Positions 24,759-51,272 of a stretch of 64,000 nt of DNA are shown here, one piece after another. Position 1 is the first letter of the stretch, and each line of letters starts with the position of its first letter. Made by a program: the position numbers and the translations under genes. Origin of the DNA: a phage. Under the pieces are notes generated by a model. The model was not told where the DNA came from and did no database searches. It saw only the letters and a list, made by a program, of their open reading frames with translations. The stretch lies in the sequence record PZ091942.1; one strand, written 5' to 3'.

Positions 24759-24767
24759 GGTGTTATC

Positions 24768-25394
24768 GTGAGCCTGTTAAGAGATTTTCAGCATTATTAT
24801 TGCGGAACATGGATTGCCCAACGTGCAGAACGAGGGATTAATCTCCCTCTGTATGTACTCAACGTAAGCCAACCAAGCCGCTTTGGGGAAGATGACTTCT
24901 CCCACGAAGCCGAAATGGCCTTGACCTTTGAAGTTGAACGCTGGTCTAAGAACTCCGAAGGGCAGTTTGAGCGACAAGTTGTTCAGGGTATCCCTGTGTT
25001 TGATCAGAGTCTGATTCTGGAATCTCCAGATGTGGGCTATCTACAACATGGTAACAACATGGTAAGCTGGACTCATATCAACCCTGTTCGTCAGCGAGCT
25101 AAAGGTCTGATGGGGAACAAGCTGCGTGGTGCACCTCCTTCAATGGGACGTTCAATTCCGGGAGAGCTGGTGTATAACCTGTTCAACCCTGACTTTGAAG
25201 GTCTGGTTACTCGCTTCATCTACATTAACCCTGTTGATGGTAAAGTTTATTACAAAGGGGCGCTTGTAGGTCAAGTTGATCTTTCTGCTGGTTACGGCGA
25301 CAACGGTCGTCAATCTTTAAATCTTCTGGAGAAGTTCAAGCATATTTCTTCAGACCTGTCATCATATAATGTAGAGTTGGTGGAAACGTTATGA
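24768..25394 (+). CDS. hypothetical protein (208 aa)
   Basis: ORF track (GTG start, AAGGTG SD). Confidence 0.55.
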   Translation: MSLLRDFQHYYCGTWIAQRAERGINLPLYVLNVSQPSRFGEDDFSHEAEMALTFEVERWSKNSEGQFERQVVQGIPVFDQSLILESPDVGYLQHGNNMVSWTHINPVRQRAKGLMGNKLRGAPPSMGRSIPGELVYNLFNPDFEGLVTRFIYINPVDGKVYYKGALVGQVDLSAGYGDNGRQSLNLLEKFKHISSDLSSYNVELVETL

Positions 25395-26491
25395 CAACCG
25401 TAGCACAAGTTTTTGGATACCGTAATGCTCGTCTGGCTGAGCCGCACCCAAGCATCGCTTTTCAGTGTGGTATTGGCATCGAGCTGGAAGTTGAAGGAAC
25501 CTCTGAAATTGATGCAGACCTTTGGGTTTGTACTGAAGATGGTTCACTTCGTGATGGCTGTGAGATGGTTTGCGCACGGCCTTACAACGGTGTAGAATTG
25601 CTTCGTGCTATTAACAATCTGAGTGAAGCAGTACAAGACTCTGAAGCTGAAGGGACTTGGCGCTGCTCTACTCATGTTCATATGGATATGCGTGACGCTG
25701 ATAGTAACATCCTGAAGAAAGTAATTCTTGGATGGACGTTCTATGAAAAGATGATGTTCAAATGTTCTGGATACCATCGCTATCGTAGCAACTTCTGTCC
25801 TGCCTTTGCTGTTGTTCAAGCACAGGTAATGAATGCTTCCGCAGCGTTCAACCGAGATGGTGAAGCCTTCTTCAACACTCTTGTTAATAGCTGGGACAAG
25901 TACACCTCCCTTAACCTATTACCTCTGGCTCAGTTTGGTTCTGTTGAGTTTCGTATCTCAGAGCCGAAGTGGAAGAAAAGCCAACTCCTGAATCTGGTCA
26001 ACCGCTTCTTGGTTCTCAAGAAACTGGCTGTTGAATATGCAGATTTGGACAATGAAGCATACGTTGAGAAACTGAATGAGCTTCGCTTCGCTCCTATGAT
26101 TCAGTATCTACCTCTGGACTACACGCCTAATGATAATGATCTTACTGAAGGTTATCGTTTGGCTCGTGACATTCTGTTCTGTCGTGAACGTTCGGTTACT
26201 CTGGTTGGTCGTGTTCGTGTACAACAGACTGGCCCTGATGGTGAAGTCCTTATCAACTTGCGTGATATGGGTGACTTCTATGGTTTCTTGGGATATGTAC
26301 GGGGTAATGCCAACTCTGTTTACGAAGAGATCATGACATATTACACCCCTCAGATTGAAAACACTCGAATCGCAACGGTTCGTGAAATTCGTCACATGTT
26401 TACTTTGATGCGTGAATCAGGTAGCAGTGATGATAACGTCACTGGTTATATTCCAGACCATCTGGAAATGCAATTAGAACGACTGCTGTAA
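25391..26491 (+). CDS. GS/GCS2-like amidoligase
   Basis: ORF track; motifs GIGIELEVEG, EDGSLRDGCE, STHVHMD, GSVEFR typical of glutamine-synthetase-fold carboxylate-amine ligases. Confidence 0.6.
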   Translation: MTTVAQVFGYRNARLAEPHPSIAFQCGIGIELEVEGTSEIDADLWVCTEDGSLRDGCEMVCARPYNGVELLRAINNLSEAVQDSEAEGTWRCSTHVHMDMRDADSNILKKVILGWTFYEKMMFKCSGYHRYRSNFCPAFAVVQAQVMNASAAFNRDGEAFFNTLVNSWDKYTSLNLLPLAQFGSVEFRISEPKWKKSQLLNLVNRFLVLKKLAVEYADLDNEAYVEKLNELRFAPMIQYLPLDYTPNDNDLTEGYRLARDILFCRERSVTLVGRVRVQQTGPDGEVLINLRDMGDFYGFLGYVRGNANSVYEEIMTYYTPQIENTRIATVREIRHMFTLMRESGSSDDNVTGYIPDHLEMQLERLL

Positions 26492-26568
26492 CACAATGGG
26501 CGCTCTGATAAAGGGCGCATTTAAAGGTTAATTAGATGAAAGGGTTTACCCTTCAGGTGGATTAGAAA

Positions 26569-28602
26569 ATTTGTGGTATCGTATTAGCTGGGGGCAACAT
26601 GACCTCCACAGACTTAGACGTATTCAACCAGCTTCTGTATGCCGGAGTCTTCCGTGGTCAGCACTCAACTGGTGTGTTCGGTCAGCGTAAAAGTGATGCA
26701 AGAGTGTTTTCTTATAAAGAAGCACTTCCTTCTTATGCTTTCATGCTTCAGACAGAGTACACGAATATTACTAAGGGGCTTACGAACTATGTAGTTCCTC
26801 CAGCGTGGATTGTTGGTCATAGCCGACATGCCACTCGTGGCGCTGTCAATGCTCGAAATGCTCACCCGTTCTCTCATGGTGACATTACTCTGGTTCACAA
26901 TGGTACATTGATGGACCAAGAGCTGTTACCTGACCATAAGAACTTCGAAGTTGATAGCGAAAACATCTGTCATTCAATCAACACCATTGGTGCAGCAGAG
27001 ACTATCCAGAAGTTGGATGGTGCGTTCACTTTAATCTGGCATGATGCCAAAGACAATACTCTGCATATCATTCGTAACGATGAACGTCCTTTCCATCTGG
27101 CCCGTTGTGGTCTGGATTGGTTTGGTGCTTCTGAAGAAGATATGTTGATGTGGATTCTTAATCGTTCCAAGTCACACAAGAACCGTATCAATGATCACTT
27201 TGAATGTAAAGTGGGAACTGAATACATCTTTGATTTGTCTGGCAACCGTATGACTCTGACTCAAGAGGTGGAGCACAAGCTTCCGGTTTTTACGGTAACG
27301 AGTCGCTGGGGCGGCTATTACTCGAACTCCTCTCTATATCAGAACCAACAGACAAACAAATCAAGCAGCAGCACAAGCGACATTTACGGAAACAAAGACG
27401 ACAAGCCCGGCGTGACAAGCGGGGACATTCGCCGTCGTAAAGCGATTGAAGATCAGAATAAACTGGCTGCCGATCGTGGTCTTCCATATCGTCGTGATGG
27501 TCGTGTGGATATCATCCCTCACGAGTTCCATGCTTACAACAACACTGACCGTGGTAAGATGGTTGGTTATATTTATGATGATGCTGCTCAAGAATATGTT
27601 GAGGGTGATGTTCATAATGTAGCCAAGAGTGAGTACTTGAAGGCTCTCGAAAACCCAAAGGTAGTGTATCGCGGGACAGTTGCTTGTATCTCCGAAGTGG
27701 ACAGTATGATTCGCCTCGTACTCACTTCAGGGCTGTTTGTTGATGCTACCGATAAGGAGCCTCAAAGCACTACCGCTGATTTTGATGATGATATCCCTTT
27801 TGATTTAGAAGACTCCTTCATCACTAAGAATGGTGTGGAAGTCACTCGTAAGTTCTGGGAATCTCATTCTCATGGTGATTGTGGCGGTTGTGACAAGCAC
27901 ATTGAATGGAAAGATGCTAAGAAAGCTGTGTTCGCTTACCAAGCATATTGGCATCCGGCCTGTTTCGAAGCATTGTCCAAACCATCGGAAGAAGATGAAG
28001 ACATCCCTTTAGGTGTCTGTGCTGTGTGTGGCAATGTTAAAACTGATTTCGAGTTTGATAACGAAATGAGTAAACTTCGTGGTGAAGATATTTGTTATGT
28101 CTGTGCCAAAGAAATCAAAGACAAAGTGACTAACACTACATTGTCTGAAGGTTACATTTGGACTAAAGCAGTTGACACAACTAACCCACGCCGCCCTGAA
28201 GTAGCAGTTCGTGTTGATCAGCGTATGCTTAGCCGGATGATCGTAATGGTTAGCTCAGCTAAGCGTTCTGGAGACATTGAACTGTCTGATGTTCCTAATT
28301 CTTATTTGGAGAAACGTGGTGGTGATACTTATGCCATCTCTGTTTATGGTCCAAAGAATGCCCCAAAGGAGGTGCCCGCTGAGAAAGCGGAAACATTTCC
28401 AGAAAAACAAACAACTCTCCGAAAAACAGTTGTCAGTTACGATGGACAGCGAACAGCTGAGTTCACAAAAGCCCTCTGGACTTCAATTGGGTTTTGTGCA
28501 GTCTGTTATAAACAAATTCCGTGGCGTGATGCAGAAGTTTGCTCACTAAACAAAGAAAACAGGGTGATCTGTAATTCAGATTACTGTAAAGGTAAACATT
28601 AA
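26569..28602 (+). CDS. class-II glutamine amidotransferase domain protein with Cys-rich C-terminal region
   Basis: Track ORF 26599..28602; GHSRHATRG...NAHPF...HNG motifs; in-frame upstream codons ATT-TGT-GGT-ATC-GTA encode the canonical CGIV N-terminus, so start placed at ATT 26569 (AGGTGG SD 8 nt upstream); C-terminal half has several CxxC pairs. Confidence 0.7.
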   Translation: MCGIVLAGGNMTSTDLDVFNQLLYAGVFRGQHSTGVFGQRKSDARVFSYKEALPSYAFMLQTEYTNITKGLTNYVVPPAWIVGHSRHATRGAVNARNAHPFSHGDITLVHNGTLMDQELLPDHKNFEVDSENICHSINTIGAAETIQKLDGAFTLIWHDAKDNTLHIIRNDERPFHLARCGLDWFGASEEDMLMWILNRSKSHKNRINDHFECKVGTEYIFDLSGNRMTLTQEVEHKLPVFTVTSRWGGYYSNSSLYQNQQTNKSSSSTSDIYGNKDDKPGVTSGDIRRRKAIEDQNKLAADRGLPYRRDGRVDIIPHEFHAYNNTDRGKMVGYIYDDAAQEYVEGDVHNVAKSEYLKALENPKVVYRGTVACISEVDSMIRLVLTSGLFVDATDKEPQSTTADFDDDIPFDLEDSFITKNGVEVTRKFWESHSHGDCGGCDKHIEWKDAKKAVFAYQAYWHPACFEALSKPSEEDEDIPLGVCAVCGNVKTDFEFDNEMSKLRGEDICYVCAKEIKDKVTNTTLSEGYIWTKAVDTTNPRRPEVAVRVDQRMLSRMIVMVSSAKRSGDIELSDVPNSYLEKRGGDTYAISVYGPKNAPKEVPAEKAETFPEKQTTLRKTVVSYDGQRTAEFTKALWTSIGFCAVCYKQIPWRDAEVCSLNKENRVICNSDYCKGKH

Positions 28603-28613
28603 GAGGTGAAGTT

Positions 28614-28847
28614 ATGGAAGTTCGTAAATTGATGTTGGATAACGTTGTAACCACTCGACGTATCCCAATGACAAGCACAGGATGTGACAACCTTCGAGCT
28701 ATTCAGAAATGGATGCAAGAGGGTATTGGGGGACTGGTTAACTCTCCAGTTGAAATTCCTTTCCCAACCGTTATCAACAACGTGTTGGCTGACTATGTGA
28801 AATTGAAGGGGATTAAAGTTGAGCCTCATGTCAAGCAAGGGAGCTAA
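28614..28847 (+). CDS. hypothetical protein
   Basis: ORF track; GAGGTGA SD. Confidence 0.55.
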   Translation: MEVRKLMLDNVVTTRRIPMTSTGCDNLRAIQKWMQEGIGGLVNSPVEIPFPTVINNVLADYVKLKGIKVEPHVKQGS

Positions 28848-29049
28848 GCCTCACCTGACAATGCTGGAGTATCAACAACTCCGACTTCAACAACTGGTAA
28901 CGGAGCAGCGAAAGCTGTATCCGTTTGCTTTTAACCTAATTGATTCACCAAGCGATGACCAAGAAGACGAGATGTTCGCCAAGTATTGGGAAATCGAAGT
29001 TAAAATTCAATCCTGTCGTAACGAAATTCTTAAACTAAAAGGTATCTAA
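28819..29049 (+). CDS. hypothetical protein (start uncertain)
   Basis: ORF track; overlaps upstream gene; no clear SD. Confidence 0.4.
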   Translation: MSLMSSKGAKPHLTMLEYQQLRLQQLVTEQRKLYPFAFNLIDSPSDDQEDEMFAKYWEIEVKIQSCRNEILKLKGI

Positions 29050-29051
29050 AA

Positions 29052-30299
29052 ATGACTACTCGTATCCGTGTTCTTCCGTATGGCCCTTCTGATTCTGTTA
29101 ACGCTCTGGTAACTGCCATTAATGATACTATCCGTGATGAACGTATCAACGCTAACGTAATGGGTCTTCTTTCAGAGAACAGCCGCTGGCGTTCTCGTGA
29201 AGGTGATGTGGTTGTGAACTACGGGAACCGTCGCTATCCTGAATCATTCTTTGGTTCTGCAACTGTTCTGAACAGCACAGCATCTCTGCATATGGCAGCG
29301 AACAAGCGTCGTGCTTTTAGCGTGATGGACCAAGCAGGTGTTAAAACAGTTGAATATACAGATGTTCAATCAACTGCTCAAGAGTGGTCAAACTCTGGCA
29401 ATATTGTGTATGAGCGTCATGAACTGACTGGTCACTCTGGTTCAGGCATTGTTGTTGTAGAGCCTCGTGATTCGGTTGGTCAAGCTGAACTGTACACCAA
29501 AGGTATCCTAGGCCCACGTCGTGAATGGCGTGTCCATGTGTTCAAAGGTGCTATCACCTATGTTCAGAAAAAGATTCGTCGTAACGGTTATCGTGAAGAC
29601 CCTAACTATCGTGAAGATGTTCGTAACCATCACACTGGTTGGGTTTACTCAAGTTCCTTCACAGACGTTCCGAACGACACCTCTCTGATCAACGCAGTGA
29701 AAGCTGTTGAATCAATGGGTCTGGATTTCGGTGCAGTTGATATCATCACCAAAGGTCAAGAAGCATGGGTACTGGAAGTTAATACAGCACCGGGCCTAAC
29801 TGGCACAACTCTGGATATCTACCGTCATAATATCCTTGAGTTTGTTAAAGCTCAAAACCCTCTTTATACTCCTCAGTATAAAGTAGTTTACCAGACTCCT
29901 GTTGAAGCTCCAATCGAAGACGGAGACGGTGAGTTGGTTGCTGACAGTGAAAGTGCTGACGATGAAAACTTTGCACTGGAAGGCCAAGTAGCACAACCGG
30001 TTGATTCAGTTGATGTGGTTCCTGAAGAAATGCAACTGGAAGGTCAGATGAATACTCAAACTATTCGTAATGCACCTACTGGTTATGTGTTGTCTCGTGG
30101 TTATTGGATTGCCAACATCCGTCATGTTCATAACAACCTGCAACCAAATGCAATGGCTGCCAATGTCATTCTGTTCTGTGATGGTCGTAACTTCTACCGC
30201 TCTGGTTGGAACGTTCCGGTCAATCCAGTCCAGATTCATAACCCTCGCAAGTTAGAATCTGTCAATGTTGAAGGTAGTGAAGTAGCAGTAACTCTGTAA
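29052..30299 (+). CDS. ATP-grasp family ligase
   Basis: ORF track; motifs HSGSGIVVVEP, DFGAVDII, EVNTAPGLTG matching ATP-grasp (RimK/GshB-like) fold. Confidence 0.7.
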   Translation: MTTRIRVLPYGPSDSVNALVTAINDTIRDERINANVMGLLSENSRWRSREGDVVVNYGNRRYPESFFGSATVLNSTASLHMAANKRRAFSVMDQAGVKTVEYTDVQSTAQEWSNSGNIVYERHELTGHSGSGIVVVEPRDSVGQAELYTKGILGPRREWRVHVFKGAITYVQKKIRRNGYREDPNYREDVRNHHTGWVYSSSFTDVPNDTSLINAVKAVESMGLDFGAVDIITKGQEAWVLEVNTAPGLTGTTLDIYRHNILEFVKAQNPLYTPQYKVVYQTPVEAPIEDGDGELVADSESADDENFALEGQVAQPVDSVDVVPEEMQLEGQMNTQTIRNAPTGYVLSRGYWIANIRHVHNNLQPNAMAANVILFCDGRNFYRSGWNVPVNPVQIHNPRKLESVNVEGSEVAVTL

Positions 30300-30325
30300 T
30301 TAAATTAAACAAAAAGGAATTTGTA

Positions 30326-30568
30326 ATGTTGTCTATCGAAGATTTGATCAGCCGTGGAATGACCGAAGAAAAAGAGCCTCTGATTGTAGGCTCTCGTAAA
30401 GCTATTAACCAACTCTGTGAAGAGTTTGGCATCACAAACAAGAGAATGATTGGTAATCAGTTCTCTGCAATCATCACCTTCCTCAAACGAGGTGATAAAT
30501 ATTCAATGGAATGTGTTGAGCGTATCATCGCAATTGCACAAGAAGATAAGGGAGTAACAACTCTGTGA
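30326..30568 (+). CDS. hypothetical protein
   Basis: ORF track; AAAGGAA SD. Confidence 0.55.
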   Translation: MLSIEDLISRGMTEEKEPLIVGSRKAINQLCEEFGITNKRMIGNQFSAIITFLKRGDKYSMECVERIIAIAQEDKGVTTL

Positions 30569-30750
30569 ATAAATATACAATCATGTTTCGTACAGTATCA
30601 GCAGAAGGGAATATTCAATCTCTGGACATTCAAGCAGACCGCTTTGAATCACTTGGAACAAATGTTAATTTCTTCCGAGGTGCAGAGCTAGTAGGTATGT
30701 TCCAATCTGATGTATTGACTGGTGTGATCAAACACTTCGAAGTAGAATAA
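30565..30750 (+). CDS. hypothetical protein
   Basis: ORF track (GTG start overlapping upstream stop). Confidence 0.45.
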   Translation: MNKYTIMFRTVSAEGNIQSLDIQADRFESLGTNVNFFRGAELVGMFQSDVLTGVIKHFEVE

Positions 30751-30807
30751 TTTGCTTTAGCCTCTTCGAAAGAGGGGGCTAGTTCGAATTTAACTGGAGG
30801 TTGTAAA

Positions 30808-31224
30808 ATGGTTGATAATAAACTGGATATGTTTAAAAGTCGTATCTTAGATGTAGAGTATTCCAAAAACCTCTTTGAGAAACATAAGAAAGAGGCAAAG
30901 GAAGAATTAGAAAGTCTTCTGAAAGATGAAGAGATTCCACTCTTTAATCGCTGGTGCCTGTTTATGGAGCACAGCTCCCTTTTCCCTGTGGCTTCTAGCT
31001 CTATCAGCAGAGCTGTTAACTATGCAGTAGACCGTTATTATGACTTGGAGAGATATCGAACCTACACCCTCTCTGATATTTTTGAAGAGTATTGGTTCAA
31101 GGAAAAAGAATTGTCGAACAGTGATCTTGTGGAAGCTGTTAAGGAGAGTTTTGAACTAATCTCTGAAAAAGATGTTCGATCAATCATCTTCTCCGGATAT
31201 TCTGGTTTCCTATACGATTGGTAG
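30808..31224 (+). CDS. hypothetical protein
   Basis: ORF track; GGAGG SD. Confidence 0.6.
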   Translation: MVDNKLDMFKSRILDVEYSKNLFEKHKKEAKEELESLLKDEEIPLFNRWCLFMEHSSLFPVASSSISRAVNYAVDRYYDLERYRTYTLSDIFEEYWFKEKELSNSDLVEAVKESFELISEKDVRSIIFSGYSGFLYDW

Positions 31225-31230
31225 ACAGTC

Positions 31231-31428
31231 ATGAAAAAGATTTTACTCCTCCTCTCCTTATTCAGCGTATCAGCAATCGCCGCTGATGAATGCATCTCTA
31301 AAGATTCAGGGAGAGGTCAAATCGTAACTCAATGTGGCAGCCATGTAACGGTTGTCGATTCTATAACTCAAACAATTCTCGTGTGTAACGGGACTTCTTG
31401 TACAAAAGAAATTCTAAACAAAAGGTAA
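31231..31428 (+). CDS. small secreted Cys-containing protein
   Basis: ORF track; signal-peptide-like N-terminus. Confidence 0.5.
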   Translation: MKKILLLLSLFSVSAIAADECISKDSGRGQIVTQCGSHVTVVDSITQTILVCNGTSCTKEILNKR

Positions 31429-31432
31429 TGTA

Positions 31433-31864
31433 ATGTCTGATAAAGTATTAGTTGCAACGTATGGTTCTCTTCGTAAAGGTCAACACAACCACGCTATCAA
31501 TGCTCGTGCCGGTGGTGTGTCTATTGGTGAAGGGTGGACAGTAAACAACTGTAACCTGTATCAGTATTGCACAGCATACTTCCCAAGTGTATCTCTGGTG
31601 CATGACAGCAATGGCAAGCCTGTTCGTGTAGAAGTCTTTGAAACAACCCAAGCTGGTCTGGAAGGTCCGTATGACGGTCTGGAAGGTTATCGTGGTAAAG
31701 ACAATCCGTACACCTTCTATAATCGTACACTGATTCCAGTAGTGCTGGATAATGGTGAAACTGTGGAAGCATGGATTTATCATATCGACGAAGAACAAGA
31801 TGTTCTGGTTGAATCTGGTGACTGGACAGCGTATCTGGCAGGTGAACAGGATGACAGTAACTGA
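31433..31864 (+). CDS. gamma-glutamyl cyclotransferase (AIG2/GGCT-like)
   Basis: ORF track; N-terminal VATYGSLRKG motif and downstream Glu (EAWIYH). Confidence 0.7.
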   Translation: MSDKVLVATYGSLRKGQHNHAINARAGGVSIGEGWTVNNCNLYQYCTAYFPSVSLVHDSNGKPVRVEVFETTQAGLEGPYDGLEGYRGKDNPYTFYNRTLIPVVLDNGETVEAWIYHIDEEQDVLVESGDWTAYLAGEQDDSN

Positions 31865-32057
31865 GCGACAGAAGCTGAGAAAGCTTGAGTCTGATTACTT
31901 AAAGTTACGGTGGAAGATTAACCGTTATGATAAGTTTGTCAGTATGCTTGACCGCAATAAACATTCTGAAGATTTTATCATGAGAACCCAATCAGCTTTA
32001 CAGGGTTTTAAAAGTCTTCAAGATGATGTGTGGGAAGAAATACGTTCGTTTTATTGA
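31851..32057 (+). CDS. hypothetical protein
   Basis: Internal ATG of track ORF 31752..32057; overlaps GGCT 3' end. Confidence 0.45.
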   Translation: MTVTERQKLRKLESDYLKLRWKINRYDKFVSMLDRNKHSEDFIMRTQSALQGFKSLQDDVWEEIRSFY

Positions 32058-34428: not shown

Positions 34429-35877
34429 ATGATTAAGATTCCATTGTCTGAATTGAACCTTCAAGAAGGAGAAGCCCTCAGTGTAGGGCTTGACCTAATT
34501 CGTAATTTGATCAGAGATAACGTAGTCCCTGATGGTATCTATCCTGTCATTGCAGGTGGTGCTATCCGTGATACGTTCTTCCAAAATCGAACTCCGAATG
34601 ATGTTGATATCTTCCTAGTTCAAGGAGGGCTTCGTTGGAACACTCGTCAGGAAAACAGCCCTGCTAACGTAGGTAATGCTGCACTTTTCCTTGACAACTT
34701 CTTATCTTGGACAGAAAGTAAGGGGCTTCAGGTTACATCTCGACTAATTCAGCCTGTTAACGGGACAACCTATGCTGAAGCGCTTTTCACTTTCCAAGAG
34801 ATTCTGGAAATTGAGATTGATCAAGTTAAAATCCAGATGATGATTAATCTACCTTTGGATATGGATACTTTAAGCCGTCGCTTCCCTATGATCTGTCAAG
34901 GGTTTATGACTCTTGGTAATCTGTATGTGTCAAACGAAGGTTTGTTTGCAATGTCATACACTCGTGACATTCCTGTGGTATCTAGTCGTGAAATGAAGTA
35001 CGTTCACAAGAAGTGGCCTGAAGCAACTGTTGCAGTTTATAGCAGTTCTACCGAATATATGCACCTTGCAATGGGAGCTTTCGGTGAGCCAGAAGTTCAC
35101 CTGATTAGTGATTTAGTTGGACCTATGGCTGGTGTAAATTTATATCAGAATCAGCGTCGTCATTATACCCTGAAGATGATGGAAACTATATTAAACATTC
35201 CTCAGGAAAGGGGTCGTAGTTATCTGGACGAGGAAGTTAACCTACAGACAGAATGGTCTAGTGGATTAACCACTATCGGTGCTGAAGCAATCACACAACC
35301 TTGGACTCCGGGAACCAACAGACGTGACTCTTGGCAACAGGAAGTCCCAAGATTCGCAGCCCCTTCTACAATGGACCCTCGTAATACTTTTAATGGCAGT
35401 TTTGGTAGTGCACGTTCTTCTGGGACGGACACCCACAACCGTACATGGCATGTTCAAGGGGGAACTGCTCGTCCTATTCCTTCTCCGTCAATGGGTGATT
35501 TACAGCGTTCTCGTCGTTCATGGGAAACAGTAAGCTCAGTTGTTCAGGGTCTACGTGCTGGTGATATAGAACGTGTAGAAGTTGGTGATTTGCCAACCCC
35601 TATGGAAGATCGAGTGTCAACTATAGCGGCTCGTGAAGCTGCTCGTGTTGGTTTTCCATCTTTAGCTAATGATGCTAACAATACTCCTCGACCTGTCGGT
35701 CGTCGTAACGGTCTGGCTCACTCTGACACTGCACTTGGTGCAGAACTTCGAGCTGCTGCTCGTGAACTATCTGGTGAGCTTCATAACAACTTAGCAGGTG
35801 TTACACTATCTCGTGAAACAGCTCGCAACATGATTAACAATTTGGCATCATCTGTACAAGGAAATAGAAACTCATGA
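34429..35877 (+). CDS. Pol-beta superfamily nucleotidyltransferase (CCA-adding/poly(A) polymerase-like head domain)
   Basis: ORF track; IAGGAIRD-x9-DVDIF matches GGxVRD...DxD head-domain motif; C-terminal half is R/S/G/T-rich low complexity. Confidence 0.55.
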   Translation: MIKIPLSELNLQEGEALSVGLDLIRNLIRDNVVPDGIYPVIAGGAIRDTFFQNRTPNDVDIFLVQGGLRWNTRQENSPANVGNAALFLDNFLSWTESKGLQVTSRLIQPVNGTTYAEALFTFQEILEIEIDQVKIQMMINLPLDMDTLSRRFPMICQGFMTLGNLYVSNEGLFAMSYTRDIPVVSSREMKYVHKKWPEATVAVYSSSTEYMHLAMGAFGEPEVHLISDLVGPMAGVNLYQNQRRHYTLKMMETILNIPQERGRSYLDEEVNLQTEWSSGLTTIGAEAITQPWTPGTNRRDSWQQEVPRFAAPSTMDPRNTFNGSFGSARSSGTDTHNRTWHVQGGTARPIPSPSMGDLQRSRRSWETVSSVVQGLRAGDIERVEVGDLPTPMEDRVSTIAAREAARVGFPSLANDANNTPRPVGRRNGLAHSDTALGAELRAAARELSGELHNNLAGVTLSRETARNMINNLASSVQGNRNS

Positions 35878-36407
35878 GTCTTTTAGGTTCTCAAGAATTA
35901 CACAGCGTTATTGATAATGGCTTTTTAGATGCGGAGCATAAATATGTTAACGCTGCTAGCGTGGATATCCGTATTGGTGATACTATCCTTGTTGAAGAAC
36001 AGGCTGACGGCATTGTTGACATTGATGCTAAAGAAAACCTCAAGTGGAAAGAAGTAAAAATCCCTGAAGATGGTATCGTTATCACTCCGGGACAGTTCTT
36101 CTTAGCTCACTCGATGGAAGAGTTTAACCTTCCAGATAATATCTCAAGCCTGTTTGTACTCCGCTCCTCAATGGCTCGTTGTGGTTTAAACCACCTCCAT
36201 GCTGGTTGGGCTGATGCAGGGTTTAACAGCAGTAAACTAACCTTTGAATTTCATAACGTTACCCATAATCATAGCTTACGAGTTCGTGCTGGGATGCGTG
36301 TTGGTCAAATGGTTATGTTCGAACACTCTCACGCTGGTGATGACTCTTATGCAGTGAAGGGTCGATACAACGGCAGTAATGGTGTAGTTGCATCTAAGGG
36401 TGTATAA
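35874..36407 (+). CDS. dCTP deaminase-like (dUTPase fold)
   Basis: ORF track; ASVDIRIG, RSSMARCG, GWADAGF motifs. Confidence 0.7.
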   Translation: MSLLGSQELHSVIDNGFLDAEHKYVNAASVDIRIGDTILVEEQADGIVDIDAKENLKWKEVKIPEDGIVITPGQFFLAHSMEEFNLPDNISSLFVLRSSMARCGLNHLHAGWADAGFNSSKLTFEFHNVTHNHSLRVRAGMRVGQMVMFEHSHAGDDSYAVKGRYNGSNGVVASKGV

Positions 36408-37101: not shown

Positions 37102-37431
37102 ATGTTAGATTTGAGTAAAGTGGCCCCGCCATCTGAAGAGATTAGCAAAGCTAAAGTTATGCAGCAGTTCTACCATCGGGATATGCTTGGTCGTTATATC
37201 AAGAATCGTGATGTTGTTGCATGGTCTATTGGAAATCAAGGTTATCTTCTCAAAGTGTTGCAAGTTACTGGCTCAACAGCCAAGCGTGTTAAGGTGTATG
37301 ACCCTGAAATGGGGCGTTCTAAGTCTGTAGACCCACAGAACTGCATCGTTATTACCCAGCAAGTAATGGATAATATTGAACGCAATGTAGCGAACTCAAC
37401 TAACTTAGAGGGAGAATCTCCAAATGCATAA
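37102..37431 (+). CDS. hypothetical protein
   Basis: ATG 37102 with AGGAGAGAG SD inside track ORF 37084..37431. Confidence 0.55.
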   Translation: MLDLSKVAPPSEEISKAKVMQQFYHRDMLGRYIKNRDVVAWSIGNQGYLLKVLQVTGSTAKRVKVYDPEMGRSKSVDPQNCIVITQQVMDNIERNVANSTNLEGESPNA

Positions 37432-37990
37432 TAATGTCTTCGACTTACCAGAACTGACACGAGTGGGTTCTAGCAACCCATTCTCTACAACTGACTCTTC
37501 TATCTCTCGTCTAGAGGGAATGAATAAACTGATCAGTGGTAACAGTCTAGAGCACATCCTATGCGGTGTGCAGGCTAACCTTGAGCTTCTACACATCAAA
37601 GCAAAGAATTATCACTGGAACGTCTCTGGAGCTGGTTTCCAAGGTGTTCATGGTATGTTCGATGAATTAGAAGACTATGCTCGTGAAACTGGTGATCGGG
37701 TAGCAGAGCGAATGCGTTATCACTGTATTAAAGTGGATGCAACAGCTAGTAGCTATCTTGGTTGTGCTTGGTTCCGAGAAGGTAACGCTGATCTCGACAT
37801 GGACGGTATGCTTTCCGACATGTGCATGACTCTTATGTGTATGATTGAGAAGATGGATGAGTTTGATTCAGACTTGTGCACCTATCCAGTAGACCAGAGT
37901 ATGCTTCAAGAAATTAATGAAGGTCTTGGCAAGTTCTGTTACTTCGTCAAGAGCAACATGTCCCACTCTAGTGGCGATGTGTCTTACTAA
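37424..37990 (+). CDS. Dps/ferritin-like protein
   Basis: ORF track; GAGGGAG SD; LQANLELLHIKAKNYHWNVSGAGFQGVHGMFDELEDY matches Dps signature. Confidence 0.55.
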   Translation: MHNNVFDLPELTRVGSSNPFSTTDSSISRLEGMNKLISGNSLEHILCGVQANLELLHIKAKNYHWNVSGAGFQGVHGMFDELEDYARETGDRVAERMRYHCIKVDATASSYLGCAWFREGNADLDMDGMLSDMCMTLMCMIEKMDEFDSDLCTYPVDQSMLQEINEGLGKFCYFVKSNMSHSSGDVSY

Positions 37991-38053
37991 TCAAACCTCC
38001 GCCCTGTCTCTTTGTTTAAGAGGTGGGGCGAACTTCTTTATAAGGATATGAAT

Positions 38054-38233
38054 ATGTTTTCAGCAATCGTATGGTCTGTGTGGGCAATTTTTGTTGGTGG
38101 TATCGTTTATCTGGCTCAGAAGCAGATGCTTAAAGAGAATCCAAATGATGCTAAACCTATTAAACATGGTAGCATTGCTCTGGTAGTTTTCTCTGTTGTC
38201 ATTCCTTTCCTTCTCCACCTGTTGACTGCATAA
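38054..38233 (+). CDS. small membrane protein, tandem paralog 1
   Basis: ATG 38054 with AAGGA SD inside track ORF 38012..38233 (TTG); two hydrophobic helices. Confidence 0.45.
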   Translation: MFSAIVWSVWAIFVGGIVYLAQKQMLKENPNDAKPIKHGSIALVVFSVVIPFLLHLLTA

Positions 38234-38242
38234 GGGTTTGAT

Positions 38243-38428
38243 ATGATTTCACTGATTGTGTGGGCCGTGTGGTCATTAATAGTTGGTACTGTTATATATA
38301 AAGCTCGAAATTTAGCAATTAAAGAAAACCCAGCAGAAGAGGATGTTAAAGCTATCAAGCTGGGTAGTGTTGTTCTGGTACATTTTGCTATAACACTACC
38401 TCTTGTTATTATTCTTTGTATGCTATAA
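38243..38428 (+). CDS. small membrane protein, tandem paralog 2
   Basis: ORF track; AAGGG SD; similar two-helix layout and KENP motif. Confidence 0.5.
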   Translation: MISLIVWAVWSLIVGTVIYKARNLAIKENPAEEDVKAIKLGSVVLVHFAITLPLVIILCML

Positions 38429-38618
38429 GGAATCCAAAGAGTGAAACTAAACCTACCTGAAGAATTACAAGCACATGCCATTATCGTTAGTGGCTGTGTG
38501 ATGGGTCTTGGTCAAACAAAGAAGATTGCTCACGACTTAGCAAAAGGTCAGTATAAATCTTTTATTGTTGTTCCTGCTACCCAGCGTCATATCAACCTGT
38601 TTATTAACAAGGAATAGA

Positions 38619-38897
38619 ATGAGTAAAGTAATTAAGTTTTATAGTAATTCATGTGCTCCATGTGCAGCTATGGCTCCTGTGTTTAAGAAGGTTGTAGCTG
38701 ATTACAACGTAGAGGTTGAAGAAGTAAATATCTCTGAAGGTGATGGTCGAGAGCGAGCCATTGAATACGGTGTTCGCAGTATCCCAGCCTTTGTTGTCCC
38801 TGACCGTAATAGTGGTGCACATTATAGTTTATCAGGTATGCAGACCGAAGCAAACCTGAAAGCATTTTTGGATACAGCTCTGAATGGTAATCGATGA
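38619..38897 (+). CDS. thioredoxin/glutaredoxin-like protein (CxxC)
   Basis: ATG 38619 with AAGGA SD inside track ORF 38565..38897; FYSNSCAPC active-site-like motif. Confidence 0.7.
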   Translation: MSKVIKFYSNSCAPCAAMAPVFKKVVADYNVEVEEVNISEGDGRERAIEYGVRSIPAFVVPDRNSGAHYSLSGMQTEANLKAFLDTALNGNR

Positions 38898-39354
38898 TTT
38901 AGAGTATATCCCCGAAACTGGAGAGTTCTTCCGAAATGGTAAGAAGTTAGGAGGAACTCGAAGTAAGTACATAACCCTACGGTTTAAAGGGAAGGTACAC
39001 AAAGCTCATAAAGTGGCATGGTTCTTTTATTATGGAGAATGGCCTTCTTCTCAGATAGATCATATCGACAGAAACAAGAAGAACAACTCAATACAGAACT
39101 TAAGACTGGTAGACACTTCGACAAACTGCCACAACCAGTTCGGGGCTAGAGTATCAAACAAGGAAACAGGGCTTCAAGGTGTTAAGGTTGTCAAATATAG
39201 ATCAGGGACTATTAGATATAGAGCTGTTATCTGTATTGATAAAGTAGACATACATCTAGGTATGTATGGCACTGCCGAAGAAGCCCATCAAGTTTACATG
39301 AATCGAAAAAAGGAACTTTTAATTGAACGAACAACTACAAGCAACACTGATTGA
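38884..39354 (+). CDS. HNH homing endonuclease
   Basis: ORF track; IDHIDRNKKNNSIQNLRL HNH motif; sits between trx-like and thyX-like genes. Confidence 0.7.
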   Translation: MVIDDLEYIPETGEFFRNGKKLGGTRSKYITLRFKGKVHKAHKVAWFFYYGEWPSSQIDHIDRNKKNNSIQNLRLVDTSTNCHNQFGARVSNKETGLQGVKVVKYRSGTIRYRAVICIDKVDIHLGMYGTAEEAHQVYMNRKKELLIERTTTSNTD

Positions 39355-39976
39355 AGCAATGGGTAGTGACAAATCTGTAGTCAACGCAGCTAGGGTATCT
39401 TTCGGTGTTGTTCGAGAAGGTGACTTAAATGAGAGAGACACAAAACTTATCAATTTCCTTGCACGGGAAAAACACTGCACGCCTTTCCGTCATCCGACAA
39501 TTAGCTTCCGATGCAAAGCGCCAATCGCAATTGCGAGACAGTTGGGCAAGCATCAAGTTGGATTCTCGTGGAACGAAATGTCCCGGAGGTATAAAGATGG
39601 AGCAGTTGAATGCTTTGTCCCTGAAGAGATTTTTGAAAGACCTTCAGACCTCCATGCAGGTTCGGGGAGCCTCCTTATCGGAGCCAATGGTGAAGCAGCA
39701 AAAGTAGCCTTTGAACGTGCTTATACTTTAGCTGTTCAGACATACGAAGGGTTGTTATCAGAAGGTGTTGCACCAGAACAAGCTCGATTCGTATTGCCTC
39801 AGGGCATGATCACTGAGTGGGTCTGGACAGGTTCTTTATTCGGTTGGTCAGAGTTATGTCGTCAGCGACTGTCAGACCACGCTCAGTATGAAGTACGAGT
39901 GTTTGCATCAACTATTGATGAAGAGCTTCGTAAAATCTACCCAATCTCTTGGGATGCATTACGTGAAGCCCACTAA
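39323..39976 (+). CDS. thyX: flavin-dependent thymidylate synthase (ThyX)-like protein
   Basis: TTG start with AAAGGAA SD; AARVSF, TPFRH, KAPIAIARQ, NEMSRRY, RFVLPQ...WT, SDHAQYE align with T. maritima ThyX; RHR signature reads KHQ. Confidence 0.7.
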   Translation: MNEQLQATLIEAMGSDKSVVNAARVSFGVVREGDLNERDTKLINFLAREKHCTPFRHPTISFRCKAPIAIARQLGKHQVGFSWNEMSRRYKDGAVECFVPEEIFERPSDLHAGSGSLLIGANGEAAKVAFERAYTLAVQTYEGLLSEGVAPEQARFVLPQGMITEWVWTGSLFGWSELCRQRLSDHAQYEVRVFASTIDEELRKIYPISWDALREAH

Positions 39977-40148
39977 AGCATGTAGCTTCTGTCGAAAGCA
40001 GAAGCTTCTTATCAATTTCAAGCTGAACGAGGAAACAGGTTTGGGTCATGCTTTTTGTCATGATTGCAGGCACTACCTCGAACAGAAGCAATACATAAAC
40101 TGGTTGCATTACTGCAACCCTAACATCTATAAGCACAAGGTTATCTAA

Positions 40149-40628
40149 ATGAAAGCTATTTTTGAAGGAAGGGAGTATGATGTTCCTGATTGGGTTAAAT
40201 ACATAGCTCGTGACTATGATAATCTGGTTTGGGCATATGGAGACGTAAGACCTGTGTTTAATGAAAACACTGGTAGTTGGTCTAACATGTCAAAATTACC
40301 AGGATTTATTCGGGCACTTGGCTCTTCTAGTCGTCCTGTAGGTTTCGCTGCTGACTCACTTGTTGAGGTTGGTGTTGAAAAGGAAATAGACAAGCCAGAA
40401 ACGATTTGGGTTTTATCTTCAAGCACACCAATCAAGGGAAGTCGTGGGATTTCCTTCTATGTTGAGCCTGTCGCTTACTTCAAAAACAAGCCGACCATTA
40501 ATGCTCTTATGTTAAAGAATATCCCTTATTCGCAAGTTACCACCCTGTTAGACAATGGGACAGTGCTTGTTGAGAATAACGGGACAAATCAAATCTTTTA
40601 TGATTTAGAAGAAAGGGTTTTAGAATGA
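40149..40628 (+). CDS. hypothetical protein
   Basis: ORF track; AAGG SD. Confidence 0.6.
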   Translation: MKAIFEGREYDVPDWVKYIARDYDNLVWAYGDVRPVFNENTGSWSNMSKLPGFIRALGSSSRPVGFAADSLVEVGVEKEIDKPETIWVLSSSTPIKGSRGISFYVEPVAYFKNKPTINALMLKNIPYSQVTTLLDNGTVLVENNGTNQIFYDLEERVLE

Positions 40629-40837
40629 AAGGTTTAGGATTAGGAAAGCACCGTTTTACTTTCCGCATCTCCGACAGGAACCCATACCCAACGAAGATTG
40701 AACCTTACGAGATCATCTCTGAGGTGTTTATCTGGCCTTGGCAGAGTATCTATGATGTTGCTCTTAAGTCCAAGAAGAAGCTGATACCTGTTGGTATTTG
40801 GGCTGATGTTGATTTAATTAAAATCGAAAAGGTTTAA
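40625..40837 (+). CDS. hypothetical protein
   Basis: ORF track; ATGA overlap. Confidence 0.5.
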   Translation: MKGLGLGKHRFTFRISDRNPYPTKIEPYEIISEVFIWPWQSIYDVALKSKKKLIPVGIWADVDLIKIEKV

Positions 40838-40838
40838 A

Positions 40839-41159
40839 ATGATTAATGATAATACATTTAGGACTGGTAACGGAAACGAGATTAGTCCTGCTGAAGTGAT
40901 TAAACGACACAGAACACAGATGCTTATCCACTCCTATTTGTATTATTGGTTGGATGACCCAATCTGGTCTGACGATAAGTGGCAACAAGTGGCTGATGAC
41001 TTAACCACCTTGCAGGAGATGTATCCCGAACCTATTGGATTCTTTGATTCAGAGTTTGAAGGATGGAACGGTTCTACTGGTATGCATCTCCCACATGACG
41101 AGCGTATTGCTTGTATGGCTACTGAAGTATATCGTTTACATAAGGACAAATCAATCTGA
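40839..41159 (+). CDS. NAD-dependent DNA ligase domain-Ia-like protein (tentative)
   Basis: ORF track; IHSYLYYWLDDPIWSDDKWQQVADDLTTLQEMYPEPIGFFDSEFEG resembles LigA N-terminal domain Ia (YxYYVxDxPxISDxEYDxL...LE...PEL...DSP). Confidence 0.5.
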   Translation: MINDNTFRTGNGNEISPAEVIKRHRTQMLIHSYLYYWLDDPIWSDDKWQQVADDLTTLQEMYPEPIGFFDSEFEGWNGSTGMHLPHDERIACMATEVYRLHKDKSI

Positions 41160-41337
41160 AATGTTTTAAATGTGAATCAACTCTTCTCCATTTGAACTCG
41201 AAAGTAATACGGGAGCTTGCCAAAGGCTCCCCGACTAAAGGGAAGAATAAGAAGTTTGTCGAAATTAAGGTTATAGGTATACATTGTTCAGAGTGTAAAT
41301 CCTGTAGCTTCTTATATGAAGAACACGGAGGTAGGAA

Positions 41338-42078
41338 ATGAGTCGTAGAGAATCTCGGAAAGCATCACGGAGAGAATTACGTCGTGAAGCTCTCGTCACC
41401 AAGAAAGGAAAGCGGGAATTTGAAGAAGTAGTTCTTGCTAAGCCGGTAGTACCTCAGAACCAATTCCAGAGTGAGCTACTCAATGCTATCAAGACTAAAC
41501 AAGTGGTGTTCACAGACGCTCCTGCGGGCTGTGGTAAGACGTTCGTCATCACCTCTACTGTCATTGATGCACTGAAGAGTGGTAAGATTCAAAAGATTAT
41601 CATTAGCCGACCCTCTGTTGGCATGGGTAATTCTCTTGGATTACTTCCGGGCGGGCTTCGTGATAAGTTCGAACCATACCTAATGCCTATTGTTGATGTG
41701 ATTACTCAGCGATACGGTAAAGGTTTCTATGAATGTCAGCTTGGTAATGGGAACATTGAGTTTGTACCTCTGGAATATCTCCGTGGTCGATCTTTCAATG
41801 ATGCCATTGTTATTGTGGATGAGTTCCAGAATACAACCAAAGATGAGGCATTCTCTATCATGACCCGCTTGGGTGAAACATCCCAGCTGTTCTGTATGGG
41901 TGACACAAACCAGCACGATATGAAAGGTCGAGAGAGTGGTCTTACTTGGGCTACCGAGTTTATTGATGAGCACGACCTGTATGAGTTCGCTGATATTGTT
42001 GATGGCGACTCAGGTGATATTGTTCGTTCTGGTTTCTGTAAAGCAATTGTTAAAGCTATGGAAAAGGATGGTAATTAA
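41338..42078 (+). CDS. phoH: PhoH-like ATPase
   Basis: ORF track; GGAGG SD; Walker A DAPAGCGKT, Walker B IVDEFQN. Confidence 0.8.
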   Translation: MSRRESRKASRRELRREALVTKKGKREFEEVVLAKPVVPQNQFQSELLNAIKTKQVVFTDAPAGCGKTFVITSTVIDALKSGKIQKIIISRPSVGMGNSLGLLPGGLRDKFEPYLMPIVDVITQRYGKGFYECQLGNGNIEFVPLEYLRGRSFNDAIVIVDEFQNTTKDEAFSIMTRLGETSQLFCMGDTNQHDMKGRESGLTWATEFIDEHDLYEFADIVDGDSGDIVRSGFCKAIVKAMEKDGN

Positions 42079-50025: not shown

Positions 50026-50676
50026 ATGAAGAAAAAGACAACACCTACACGCTATCGTATTCATGGCATTCCTATTAAGTATTATCCAACCTTCGATGAA
50101 TTCTATCGAGAGAACTGGAAAGTTGTGCATAAGTATTTTATGTATGACATTAAAGATTATCACGAAGCAGAGGATGTTGCTCAGGAAGTGTTACTAAACG
50201 CTTGGCGTTTTGTGTTTGCAAAGCAAGAAGAACTTCTGCTCACTGATGAAAAAGATATTGAGCACATGACTTATCGTGTCAAGAATATCATCTGGTCGAT
50301 TCGTTCTAATCGCCAGACAGTTGGAGACCGACGTATCTACTCTATTCCAGAGGCTGATATGTTTAGACCTCCTGAGATGAATTCATGGGAAAGCCCTTTA
50401 GAGATTGCAATGGATAAGCATGACTCTACTGGAGACCCATTCTTGGAATCTAGAATCTTTTTCTTCTTCCAAGACTTAAGTGATATTATGGATACCAAGA
50501 AAATGGCAAGCATGTTCTCTATGCTCTTCCTTGGAATACCTCATGATCACATCCAGCAGGAGCTGGGAATTTCACACGGAACTTTCTATCGCCGTTATGC
50601 AGAGAATCGTGATCTATATGAAGCGGTAGTAGAGAAGCACTTTGATAAAGAAGATCTTCAAGGGATGATTCAATAA
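50026..50676 (+). CDS. ECF-type sigma-70 family sigma factor
   Basis: ORF track; AAGGA SD; region-2-like [14 protein letters not shown] and region-4 HTH-like [15 protein letters not shown]. Confidence 0.75.
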
Positions 50677-51272
50677 TGAGTAAACCATTAGTAGTAATTC
50701 TGAATGGACCACCGGGTTGTGGTAAAGATACAATCGCTAATTCTTGGTTAGAGAAGACACTCGGTAACGATGAGTTTAGACCGCATGTAAAGGCTTTTAA
50801 GGAGCCTATGCATCGAGTGGCTGCTGCTGCATTAGGTCTCCCTCTTCATGAGTTCATGGAGCTGTACAACGACCGTGAGTGGAAAGAACATAACCGTCCT
50901 GAATGGGGCGGTAAGTCAGTTCGAGACTTGATGATTGTAACTAGTGAGAGCTATCTGAAGCCTATGTTTGGTGAGACCTGCATGGGTAAACTTGCTGTTA
51001 GTAGTATTCAACAACGCATCCCATCACAGAATGATGTTATCGTCTTCTCTGATGGTGGGTTTAAAGCAGAAGTTGAAGAACTAGAGAAGCATTTCCATGT
51101 TCGAGTAGTTCAGATTCTCCGAGATGGCTGCTCCTTTGAAGGAGATTCCCGTTCTTATATTGAAGGAACAAACCTACCAACCTACCTCCTATTTAATGAC
51201 CGTTCTGTAGAAGAGGCAGTGGAGGATTTGGAGTGGATTATTGAAGGGACACGGAGAGGTCTCTATGTCTGA
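50676..51272 (+). CDS. P-loop nucleotide kinase (T4 dNMP kinase-like)
   Basis: ORF track; Walker A LNGPPGCGKDT resembles T4 gp1 LSGVKRSGKDT. Confidence 0.6.
   Translation: MSKPLVVILNGPPGCGKDTIANSWLEKTLGNDEFRPHVKAFKEPMHRVAAAALGLPLHEFMELYNDREWKEHNRPEWGGKSVRDLMIVTSESYLKPMFGETCMGKLAVSSIQQRIPSQNDVIVFSDGGFKAEVEELEKHFHVRVVQILRDGCSFEGDSRSYIEGTNLPTYLLFNDRSVEEAVEDLEWIIEGTRRGLYV

Follow-up and report, generated by a model that had tools for sequence, protein, structure and literature searches.

The gene at positions 39323..39976 (+ strand) of the phage sequence PZ091942.1, from which we analysed a stretch of 64,000 nucleotides (the window), encodes a homologue of the flavin-dependent thymidylate synthase ThyX in which the Arg-His-Arg (RHR) triad that is the hallmark of the family reads Lys-His-Gln (KHQ). 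In our reading this is probably a functional enzyme that converts deoxyuridine monophosphate (dUMP) to thymidine monophosphate (dTMP), and it belongs to a non-RHR subfamily of ThyX with what looks like a rebuilt cradle for the cofactor flavin adenine dinucleotide (FAD). The case is built from homology, fold, residue conservation, clade-wide fixation, purifying selection and gene context, and from these we infer activity, product and the position of a relocated arginine. A previous, sequence-only reading of this DNA had held that the substitutions could be neutral or could indicate altered substrate handling, and neither is exactly what we find: the changes are fixed in a clade and so are not private or neutral drift, and they fall on ligands of FAD while the residues that read the uracil and sugar are kept. 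Judged by its sequence, the window (G+C content 42.4%) is from a phiEco32-like (Kuravirus) coliphage; DNA identity of the region 38000-42000 is 88-91% with phiEco32-like Escherichia coli podophages (Kuravirus, Gordonclarkvirinae) including Bas88, IME267 and ECBP2.

Homology to ThyX along the whole length of the protein, as had been proposed from the sequence, is upheld by profile and structural comparisons alike. The gene encodes 217 amino acids counting its TTG start and ends in TAA (39974-39976); its product matches the Pfam family Thy1 (PF02511) over residues 8-207 (model positions 1-190/191, E 2.4e-44, 151.9 bits against a cut-off of 24.8), the NCBIfam equivalog TIGR02170 for thyX (131.8 bits against a cut-off of 87.9) and PHROG 85 (E 2.2e-62). 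An AlphaFold2 monomer model, made with 43 homologues and no ligands, has a mean local confidence (pLDDT) of 95 and a predicted template-modelling score (pTM) of 0.89. When the model was compared with the PDB using Foldseek, the top 50 matches were all ThyX, with template-modelling (TM) scores of 0.80-0.84 to the Thermotoga maritima enzyme, the best of them (0.84) being the form with bound FAD and dUMP. The closest solved relatives, T. maritima ThyX (TM0449) and Thermus thermophilus Thy1 (PDB 1O26, 8REO, 6J61), are 31-33% identical to the phage protein and share its length and fold, the TM score of the model to the Thermus enzyme being 0.73. Near-identical copies of the gene carry a thymidylate synthase annotation in dozens of Kuravirus genomes, and the homologous gene of Bas88 has the same annotation. 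By sequence and predicted fold the protein is a member of the ThyX family, though not of the canonical RHR type.

The altered triad itself, which the same reading had reported, is verified by alignment to solved ThyX enzymes and to 120 close homologues. K76-H77-Q78 (codons 39548-39556) align under R78-H79-R80 of the solved enzymes (HMMER: 6j61, E 2.5e-30; T. maritima 1kq4, E 3e-25), and the full variant motif, K76-H77-Q78-V-G-F-S-W-N-E-M-S-R-R-Y90 (39548..39592, + strand), departs from the canonical R-H-R-x2-S-x-N-E-x-S-G-R-Y in two further respects. One extra residue precedes the conserved Ser, with Gly80 following the triad, such that the phage reads KHQ-VGF-SWNEMSRRY against RHR-IA-SYNELSGRY in T. 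maritima; and Arg88 stands where T. maritima and Thermus have Gly, which turns S-G-R-Y into S-R-R-Y. These features are not peculiar to this phage. Among the 120 best homologues (52-96% identity) the triad is KHQ in 119 and KSQ in one, almost always within xGF-SWNExSRRY. A search of 1.84 billion cluster representatives returned 7601 ThyX-like sequences at E <=0.001 and 434 at E <=1e-30, and RHR occurs in none of the best 150 of these (at the 50% clustering level), nor in any of 74 loci from a scan of bacterial and archaeal genomes. Pooling the 150 representatives with 73 of the genome loci gives 223 distant sequences, of which 88 have KHQ, 41 KHK and 20 RHT, the rest being variations on K/R-H/S-x; RHR is found in 0/223, and the extra Gly and S-R-R-Y are almost universal.

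We define this subfamily by Lys or Arg at the first motif position, His (rarely Ser) at the second and a residue other than Arg at the third, by the insertion of a single residue, with Gly, ahead of the Ser/x-W/x-N-E block, by S-R-R-Y, and by absence of the equivalent of T. maritima Arg165. The phage protein has each of these features (K76, H77, Q78, G80, S87-R88-R89-Y90 and F173), and on this comparative evidence KHQ is a fixed signature of a large, virus-dominated branch of ThyX and not a mark of decay. Both types occur in cultured phages. RHR is found in phiYS40, in a Roseobacter N4-like phage and in mycobacteriophage L5, and non-RHR enzymes in Barbavirus, Pectobacterium phage Nepra, Bacillus phage Taylor and Streptomyces phage Battuta. 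The canonical viral enzymes (PBCV-1 A674R, PDB 2CFA; L5 gp48; phiYS40; RD-1410Ws-07) likewise represent virus-encoded nucleotide supply, and A674R and L5 gp48 have been assayed; L5 gp48, phiYS40 and RD-1410Ws-07 combine RHR with S-G/Q-R-Y and have no extra residue, while the PBCV-1 protein is a much weaker match to ours (E 3.6e-9). On the non-RHR side, phiEcoM-GJ1-like phages (~53 kb) have KHQ, Barbavirus and Nepra KHK, and Taylor and Battuta K-Y-x with a longer insert. These share the first-position Lys, the extra Gly and S-R-R-Y, and are annotated as thymidylate synthase or 'ThyX-like', although the third motif residue and the length of the insert vary among them.

Several homologues are interrupted by inteins with HNH or LAGLIDADG endonucleases, placed either right after KHQxGF (P0122, P0129, P0232 and P0264, at …VVHN|S/C-WNE) or near His51, in the H-x-T-P-F segment of the flavin/folate site (P0205, P0221, P0258). 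As is usual for inteins, their position at the motif marks it as a functionally critical site. Homologues of ~530 amino acids had been considered as Chlamydia-like ThyX, an identification that we reject; their inserts are of the LAGLIDADG or HNH type, and two of these proteins, in which a splicing domain could be detected, contain inteins. A cellular origin was likewise rejected for the bulk of the matches from genome collections; most are metagenome-binned contigs of ~40-65 kb that probably represent phages assigned to the wrong bin, and as evidence we took only those loci that have housekeeping neighbours.

What the substituted residues do can be judged from published work on other ThyX enzymes, which we used to assign dUMP-binding, catalytic, folate-side and flavin-side roles (PMC6514825; PMC11940539). 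In the enzymes of Mycobacterium tuberculosis and Helicobacter pylori the RHR residues hydrogen-bond to the adenosine monophosphate (AMP) phosphate, the ribityl chain and the flavin mononucleotide (FMN) phosphate of FAD; the isoalloxazine and dUMP are contacted as well, by the first Arg, and M. tuberculosis Ser71 and Arg190, of a neighbouring subunit, add further contacts to the FAD phosphates (PMC6514825). In reduced T. maritima ThyX, Arg78 faces flavin N1/C2=O and stabilises FADH- (PMC11940539). Reviews consulted for mutagenesis of the RHR residues are silent on them. By alignment, M. tuberculosis Ser71 and H. pylori Ser50 correspond to phage Thr53, and this contact is kept, whereas M. tuberculosis Arg190 corresponds to T. 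maritima Arg165 (His in Thermus) and to phage Phe173, and is lost. The FAD ligands His77 and Thr53 are thus conserved, while R78 has become Lys, R80 Gln and R165 Phe (Phe or Tyr across the subfamily), and Arg56 and Arg88 have been gained, the former in place of T. maritima Glu58. The nucleotide and catalytic side is intact. Equivalents of T. maritima H53, Q75, N85, E86, S88, R90, Y91, R147, R174 and H178 are shared by the T. maritima, Thermus and phage enzymes (in the phage H51, Q73, N84, E85, S87, R89, Y90, R155, R182 and H186), and those of T55, Q180 and E182 are present too; in 343 sequences of the subfamily most of these positions are invariant or nearly so, with greater variation at the equivalents of T55 and H178. 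Across the subfamily, KHQ is accompanied by the extra Gly, by Arg in place of Gly89, by loss of the Arg165 equivalent and by a relocated basic residue. Since the alterations fall on FAD ligands and spare the residues for nucleotide binding and catalysis, the deviation would appear to affect how the flavin is held and not which nucleotide is read.

Relocation of a basic residue is suggested by the pattern of conservation. Arg56 (codon 39488..39490, + strand) is Arg in 119/120 close homologues; it shares a short helix with Thr53, from which it is three residues further on, and is a candidate for the relocated FAD-phosphate ligand. A second such position is 177 (T. maritima Asn169; nt 39851-39853), which falls four residues after position 173, on the same helix of the AlphaFold2 model. 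Members of the close, Kuravirus-like clade have an acidic or neutral residue at 177, whereas the wider subfamily mostly has Arg there but not at position 56. Among 143 representatives, none is basic at both 56 and 177 (counts 0/26/99/18; Fisher p 4e-17, a value that ignores kinship), and exactly one basic residue is found among positions 56, 177 and 78 in 299/338 sequences. Four of five canonical references fit the same count of one, at the motif position, Roseobacter phage RD-1410Ws-07 having two. Cultured phages illustrate both of the new locations, with the basic residue at 56 in this phage, Taylor and Battuta, and at 177 in Barba. The pattern suggests that a single phosphate-binding positive charge is involved, which may be supplied from any of three alternative positions.

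We propose that the enzyme would convert dUMP to dTMP with methylenetetrahydrofolate, reduced FAD acting as both methylene carrier and reductant. Typical ThyX enzymes are homotetramers in which three subunits contribute to an active site, and their formation of dTMP also depends on NADPH. Lys76 would take over the role of Arg78, its positive charge facing flavin N1/C2=O; in flavoproteins Lys is commonly able to stabilise this edge as well. With Gln78 in place of the phosphate-binding Arg80, and the Arg165 equivalent lost, the basic residue would come from elsewhere, from Arg56 in this phage and from position 177 in most other members. Working in series with dCTP deaminase and a dNMP-kinase-like protein, ThyX would raise the supply of thymidine triphosphate for a phage of 42% G+C in a host of higher G+C.

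A number of points weigh against this interpretation. The protein reads K-H-Q-X8-S against the literal ThyX signature R-H-R-X7-S, itself a consensus drawn from canonical enzymes. We found no solved structure for any member of the non-RHR subfamily, and no measured activity for any of them in the literature. The ligands of the FAD phosphates at Arg78, Arg80 and Arg165 have changed, and so the affinity for the cofactor, or its identity, could be different. The idea of a relocated arginine draws on covariation and helix periodicity, and the statistic behind it takes no account of phylogeny. Lastly, the Gordonclarkvirinae are reported to resist restriction, although the window has many sites for EcoRI, EcoRV, EcoKI and EcoP1I, and DNA modification of another kind is a possible explanation.

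The changed ligands lead directly to an alternative in which dUMP is still converted to dTMP and the flavin is used differently, the enzyme employing FMN, a loosely bound and exchangeable flavin, or another reductant or partner such as its thioredoxin-like neighbour. All of the differing residues are ligands of the FAD phosphates, the ribityl chain or the isoalloxazine (R78K, R80Q, R165F/Y), and they are fixed in the clade together with G89R and the extra Gly. Moreover, a gene for a thioredoxin-domain protein (38565..38897, + strand; PHROG 22, E 1.2e-12; its real start is probably inside the open reading frame (ORF)) lies upstream of the HNH gene and thyX here, and another is found likewise upstream of thyX in Rheinheimera phage Barba; in a bacterial locus described below, thyX overlaps the gene of a short-chain dehydrogenase. 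However, the return of a basic residue at 56 or 177 suggests that the phosphate contact has been kept, His77 and Thr53 are conserved, and thioredoxin genes are common in the nucleotide-metabolism modules of phages for other reasons. We consider such a change in flavin use unlikely, and a conventional role for FAD in a rebuilt cradle remains our preferred explanation.

The ratio of non-synonymous to synonymous substitution rates (dN/dS) indicates that thyX is under purifying selection: comparison with the orthologues of Bas87 and Bas88 gives 0.16-0.21, within an overall range of 0.07-0.21. The divergence from these two phages is unevenly distributed: residues ~95-150 (39605-39775) diverge strongly from both while the two ends of the protein are near-identical, and this suggests intragenic recombination, with the middle third giving the gene a mosaic structure.

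The beginning of the gene is a more complicated matter, as it coincides with an inserted homing endonuclease. A free-standing HNH homing endonuclease gene (38884..39354, + strand; PF13392, E 1.6e-13) lies directly upstream of thyX and overlaps its first 32 nt. The insertion is not at this place in Bas88 but occurs in TH38, YW01, FH3, myPSH2311 and ES17; in all, six phage records carry it with 95-96% identity. The junction (39320-39325) coincides with a change from ATG to TTG relative to the HNH-less Bas88; in Bas87 the spot is occupied by another HNH insertion, and the ATG has been retained. In our reading the TTG codon arose where the endonuclease gene was inserted against the original ATG. 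No credible RNA element, whether a group I intron or of another kind, was returned for the surroundings of thyX by an Rfam scan of 38000-41000.

Translation most likely starts at this TTG (39323..39325, + strand), a conclusion for which several observations can be brought together. An in-frame TAA immediately before it (39320-39322) leaves it as the sole start upstream of ATG 39359 (Met13); it aligns with the ATG start of Bas88 thyX (ATGAATGAACAA versus TTGAACGAACAA); and the N-terminus encoded from it, MNEQLQATLIEAMGSD, is common to homologues. A Shine-Dalgarno-like AAGGAA, read from the sequence at 39310..39315 (+ strand), lies 7 nt 5' of the TTG within the 3' end of the HNH gene, and residues 6-13 form a confidently predicted beta-strand in the AlphaFold2 model. 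This agrees with the claim of the earlier reading that the conserved N-terminal block is encoded only from TTG 39323. The two other HNH-bearing phages that we read, YW01 and ES17, have an identical TTG junction, and their GenBank entries give a thyX of 206 amino acids from Met13; these annotations, which are less well supported than the TTG, probably cut the gene short by 12 residues.

It is these records, lacking beta-strand 1 from their 206-residue product, that might encourage the view that the protein is a dead or moonlighting relic of ThyX, binding dUMP or flavin, or that it has been crippled by the HNH insertion so that only a weakly initiated TTG or a Met13 product is made. The RHR hallmark has gone and the weak TTG start is overlapped by the HNH gene, and both might be said to agree. 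Yet purifying selection persists, the catalytic residues are invariant over hundreds of diverged sequences, and the gene is retained in the 99 phage records that match the region 38000-42000. The Shine-Dalgarno sequence is properly spaced before the TTG, and the same junction has been preserved in YW01 and ES17. We regard loss of function as extremely unlikely.

A different kind of objection arises from the biology of the phage group. Gordonclarkvirinae are reported to be remarkably resistant to restriction-modification, although neither a modification pathway nor an inhibitor is known for them, and the BASEL authors suspect covalent modification, speculating on deoxyuracil DNA from the presence of a dCTP deaminase and a nucleotidyltransferase, the latter flagged as a possible DNA-modification gene (PMC11990801). 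Avoidance of sites as the cause of this resistance can be rejected for EcoRI, EcoRV, EcoKI and EcoP1I, with 12, 25, 8 and 118 sites respectively in the window; sites for BamHI and PstI are absent, and those for Dcm number only 5 in the 64 kb. The presumed nucleotidyltransferase corresponds to a protein of 482 amino acids at 34429-35877 (+ strand), between the polymerase exonuclease subunit and dCTP deaminase, which belongs to PHROG 12715 ('nucleotidyltransferase') and for which we found no match by sequence in Pfam, NCBIfam or PDB. If the enzyme makes dTMP, a conserved and selected ThyX argues against wholesale replacement of thymidine by deoxyuridine.

An alternative to dTMP synthesis is that the chemistry has been altered to yield a deoxyuridylate modified at C5, such as the 5-hydroxymethyl-dUMP that would form if the exocyclic methylene intermediate were hydrated, or to act on another pyrimidine nucleotide, and that this feeds a DNA modification which would account for the restriction resistance. 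Trapping of the ThyX reaction intermediate can yield 5-hydroxymethyl-dUMP. Besides the restriction resistance of the group, the suspicion of the BASEL authors (PMC11990801) and the wealth of restriction sites in the window, the idea can draw on a changed hallmark motif beside the flavin and on the presence in the phage of a P-loop kinase and an amidoligase cluster with no assigned target. That the phage encodes a dCTP deaminase, a dNMP-kinase-like protein and amide-forming enzymes had been stated in the sequence-only reading, and all are indeed found in the window. The last form a phiEco32-type cluster at ~23900-31900 (+ strand) with a COOH-NH2 ligase (PF14395), an Amidoligase_2 protein (PF12224) and further members, which also includes a class II glutamine amidotransferase, a RimK-like ATP-grasp protein, a gamma-glutamyl cyclotransferase and three conserved proteins without a family. 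A related contig of ~101 kb (L087) has a gamma-glutamyl cyclotransferase near its replication genes. The connection that had been drawn between the amide-forming enzymes and ThyX found no support: nothing ties the amidoligase cluster to thyX, and no known thymidine-hypermodification family appeared in the scanned ORFs.

Established pathways of this kind look rather different. The ThyA-type dUMP hydroxymethylases of SPO1, ViI, M6 and phiW-14 make C5-modified dUMP for phage DNA, near P-loop kinases, and their fold is unrelated to that of ThyX, being that of classical thymidylate synthase (PMC8989533). Neither a ThyA-type hydroxymethylase nor its partner enzymes, the 5-hydroxymethyldeoxyuridine (5-hmdU) DNA kinase and aGPT-Pplase, were detected as Pfam families in the 31 window ORFs scanned, with small ORFs and the structural-gene region outside the scan and no direct comparison made with M6 gp54 or ViI gp67. 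The protein itself also speaks against altered chemistry: every residue that recognises the phosphate, the sugar or O4/N3 of the uracil has been retained, and so has Tyr90, the shield of the C5/N5 reaction centre, and the KHQ type is found in many unrelated phages without an amidoligase cluster and beside a bacterial pyrimidine operon. In addition, the DNA of phiEco32 has been mapped by restriction profiling and sub-cloned (PMC9965538).

There is a precedent for functional drift within the ThyX fold. PDB 4P5A, which is labelled ThyX in the database, we take to be PolB, the UMP/dUMP C5-methylase of polyoxin biosynthesis, a flavoenzyme with changed substrate scope whose specificity comes from two inserted loops. 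It matches the phage protein less well than true ThyX does (E 2.4e-18 versus 2.5e-30). All told, a role for this ThyX in DNA modification is unlikely, and altered chemistry as the explanation of KHQ very unlikely. In its most explicit form the KHQ enzyme of Gordonclarkvirinae would leave the reductive step unfinished and release a C5-modified deoxyuridylate, such as 5-hydroxymethyl-dUMP or a derivative of it, which the P-loop kinase of the phage would phosphorylate for incorporation into DNA; we give this only a slim chance, though if true it would be the missing modification behind restriction resistance and the first ThyX-fold enzyme in DNA hypermodification.

A dTMP-forming ThyX is, by contrast with altered chemistry, also what the surroundings of its relatives would lead one to expect. 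A KHQ-type ThyX that is 45% identical to the phage protein occurs in a chromosome of 1.79 Mb labelled Spirochaetia (OZ251568.1), and a 66%-identical copy of it lies in the same conserved locus on a metagenome contig of 186 kb. In this locus 2-oxoglutarate dehydrogenase, citrate synthase, aldo-keto reductase and short-chain dehydrogenase genes are followed by thyX, with pyrD, pyrF/E, pyrB and pyrC divergent beside it in the two bacterial assemblies. KHQ is carried by 103 of 120 relatives of the bacterial copy, and because most relatives of the Spirochaetia gene are on phage-sized contigs, that lineage probably got its thyX from a virus. A TM6 (Dependentiae) genome has an RHT-type thyX that overlaps a dCTP deaminase gene and adjoins an aminoacyl-tRNA synthetase gene, and in another genome an RHT-type thyX adjoins EF-P. 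Phage homologues are found among genes for dCTP deaminase or dUTPase, anaerobic (NrdD/NrdG) and class I ribonucleotide reductases and 5'-nucleotidase. Neighbours such as the pyr operon, dCTP deaminase and ribonucleotide reductase constitute the context expected of a true thymidylate synthase. RHT-type ThyX was also seen on contigs L006 (P0234) and L004 (P0139) of two very fragmented, eukaryote-like assemblies (GCA_013565655.1 and GCA_013572995.1), one of these homologues being fused to a dNMP kinase domain (PF21448); the contigs are possibly giant-virus inserts.

In this phage, too, thyX has neighbours of a similar kind. The early/middle block of Bas88 that includes thyX also has genes for a thioredoxin-domain protein, DNA ligase, PhoH, dCTP deaminase, primase/helicase, DNA polymerase and deoxynucleoside monophosphate (dNMP) kinase. 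In the window, dCTP deaminase is encoded at 35874..36407 (+ strand; PF22769, E 1.6e-34; TIGR02274, 107.1 bits against a cut-off of 92.8), and is a likely upstream source of deoxyuridine nucleotides for ThyX. The P-loop protein at 50676..51272 (+ strand) falls in PHROG 139 ('deoxynucleoside monophosphate kinase', E 1.5e-38), its Pfam match being weak, and could possibly provide the downstream step from dTMP to dTDP. Two smaller observations concern the flanks of the gene. A ferritin-like domain (PF00210, E 2.4e-7) is present in the product of the gene at 37424-37990 (+ strand), which goes under 'DNA binding protein' in Bas88, and the same gene is found upstream of thyX on the related contig L087. 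Downstream, a small ORF at 39963-40148 (+ strand) starts at GTG 39963, overlaps the thyX stop by 14 nt and encodes ~61 amino acids with two CxxC pairs; from its sequence it looks like a zinc finger, and it is the positional homologue of the hypothetical protein Bas88_0051.

For this phage the gene is an ordinary one, and the interest of our observations lies at the level of the family. In the literature that we searched we found no prior description or test, at family level, of either the motif variant or the apparent relocation of the arginine. The 'invariant' RHR motif, which is used for the recognition of ThyX and for the design of inhibitors, is missing from a large and mostly viral branch, in which, to judge from the alignments, the arginine that binds the flavin phosphate appears to have moved to other positions. 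Assaying one member of this branch would show how plastic the FAD cradle really is and would settle the annotation, including that of the start codon in HNH-bearing phages; it would also either remove or confirm one candidate for the restriction resistance of the Gordonclarkvirinae.

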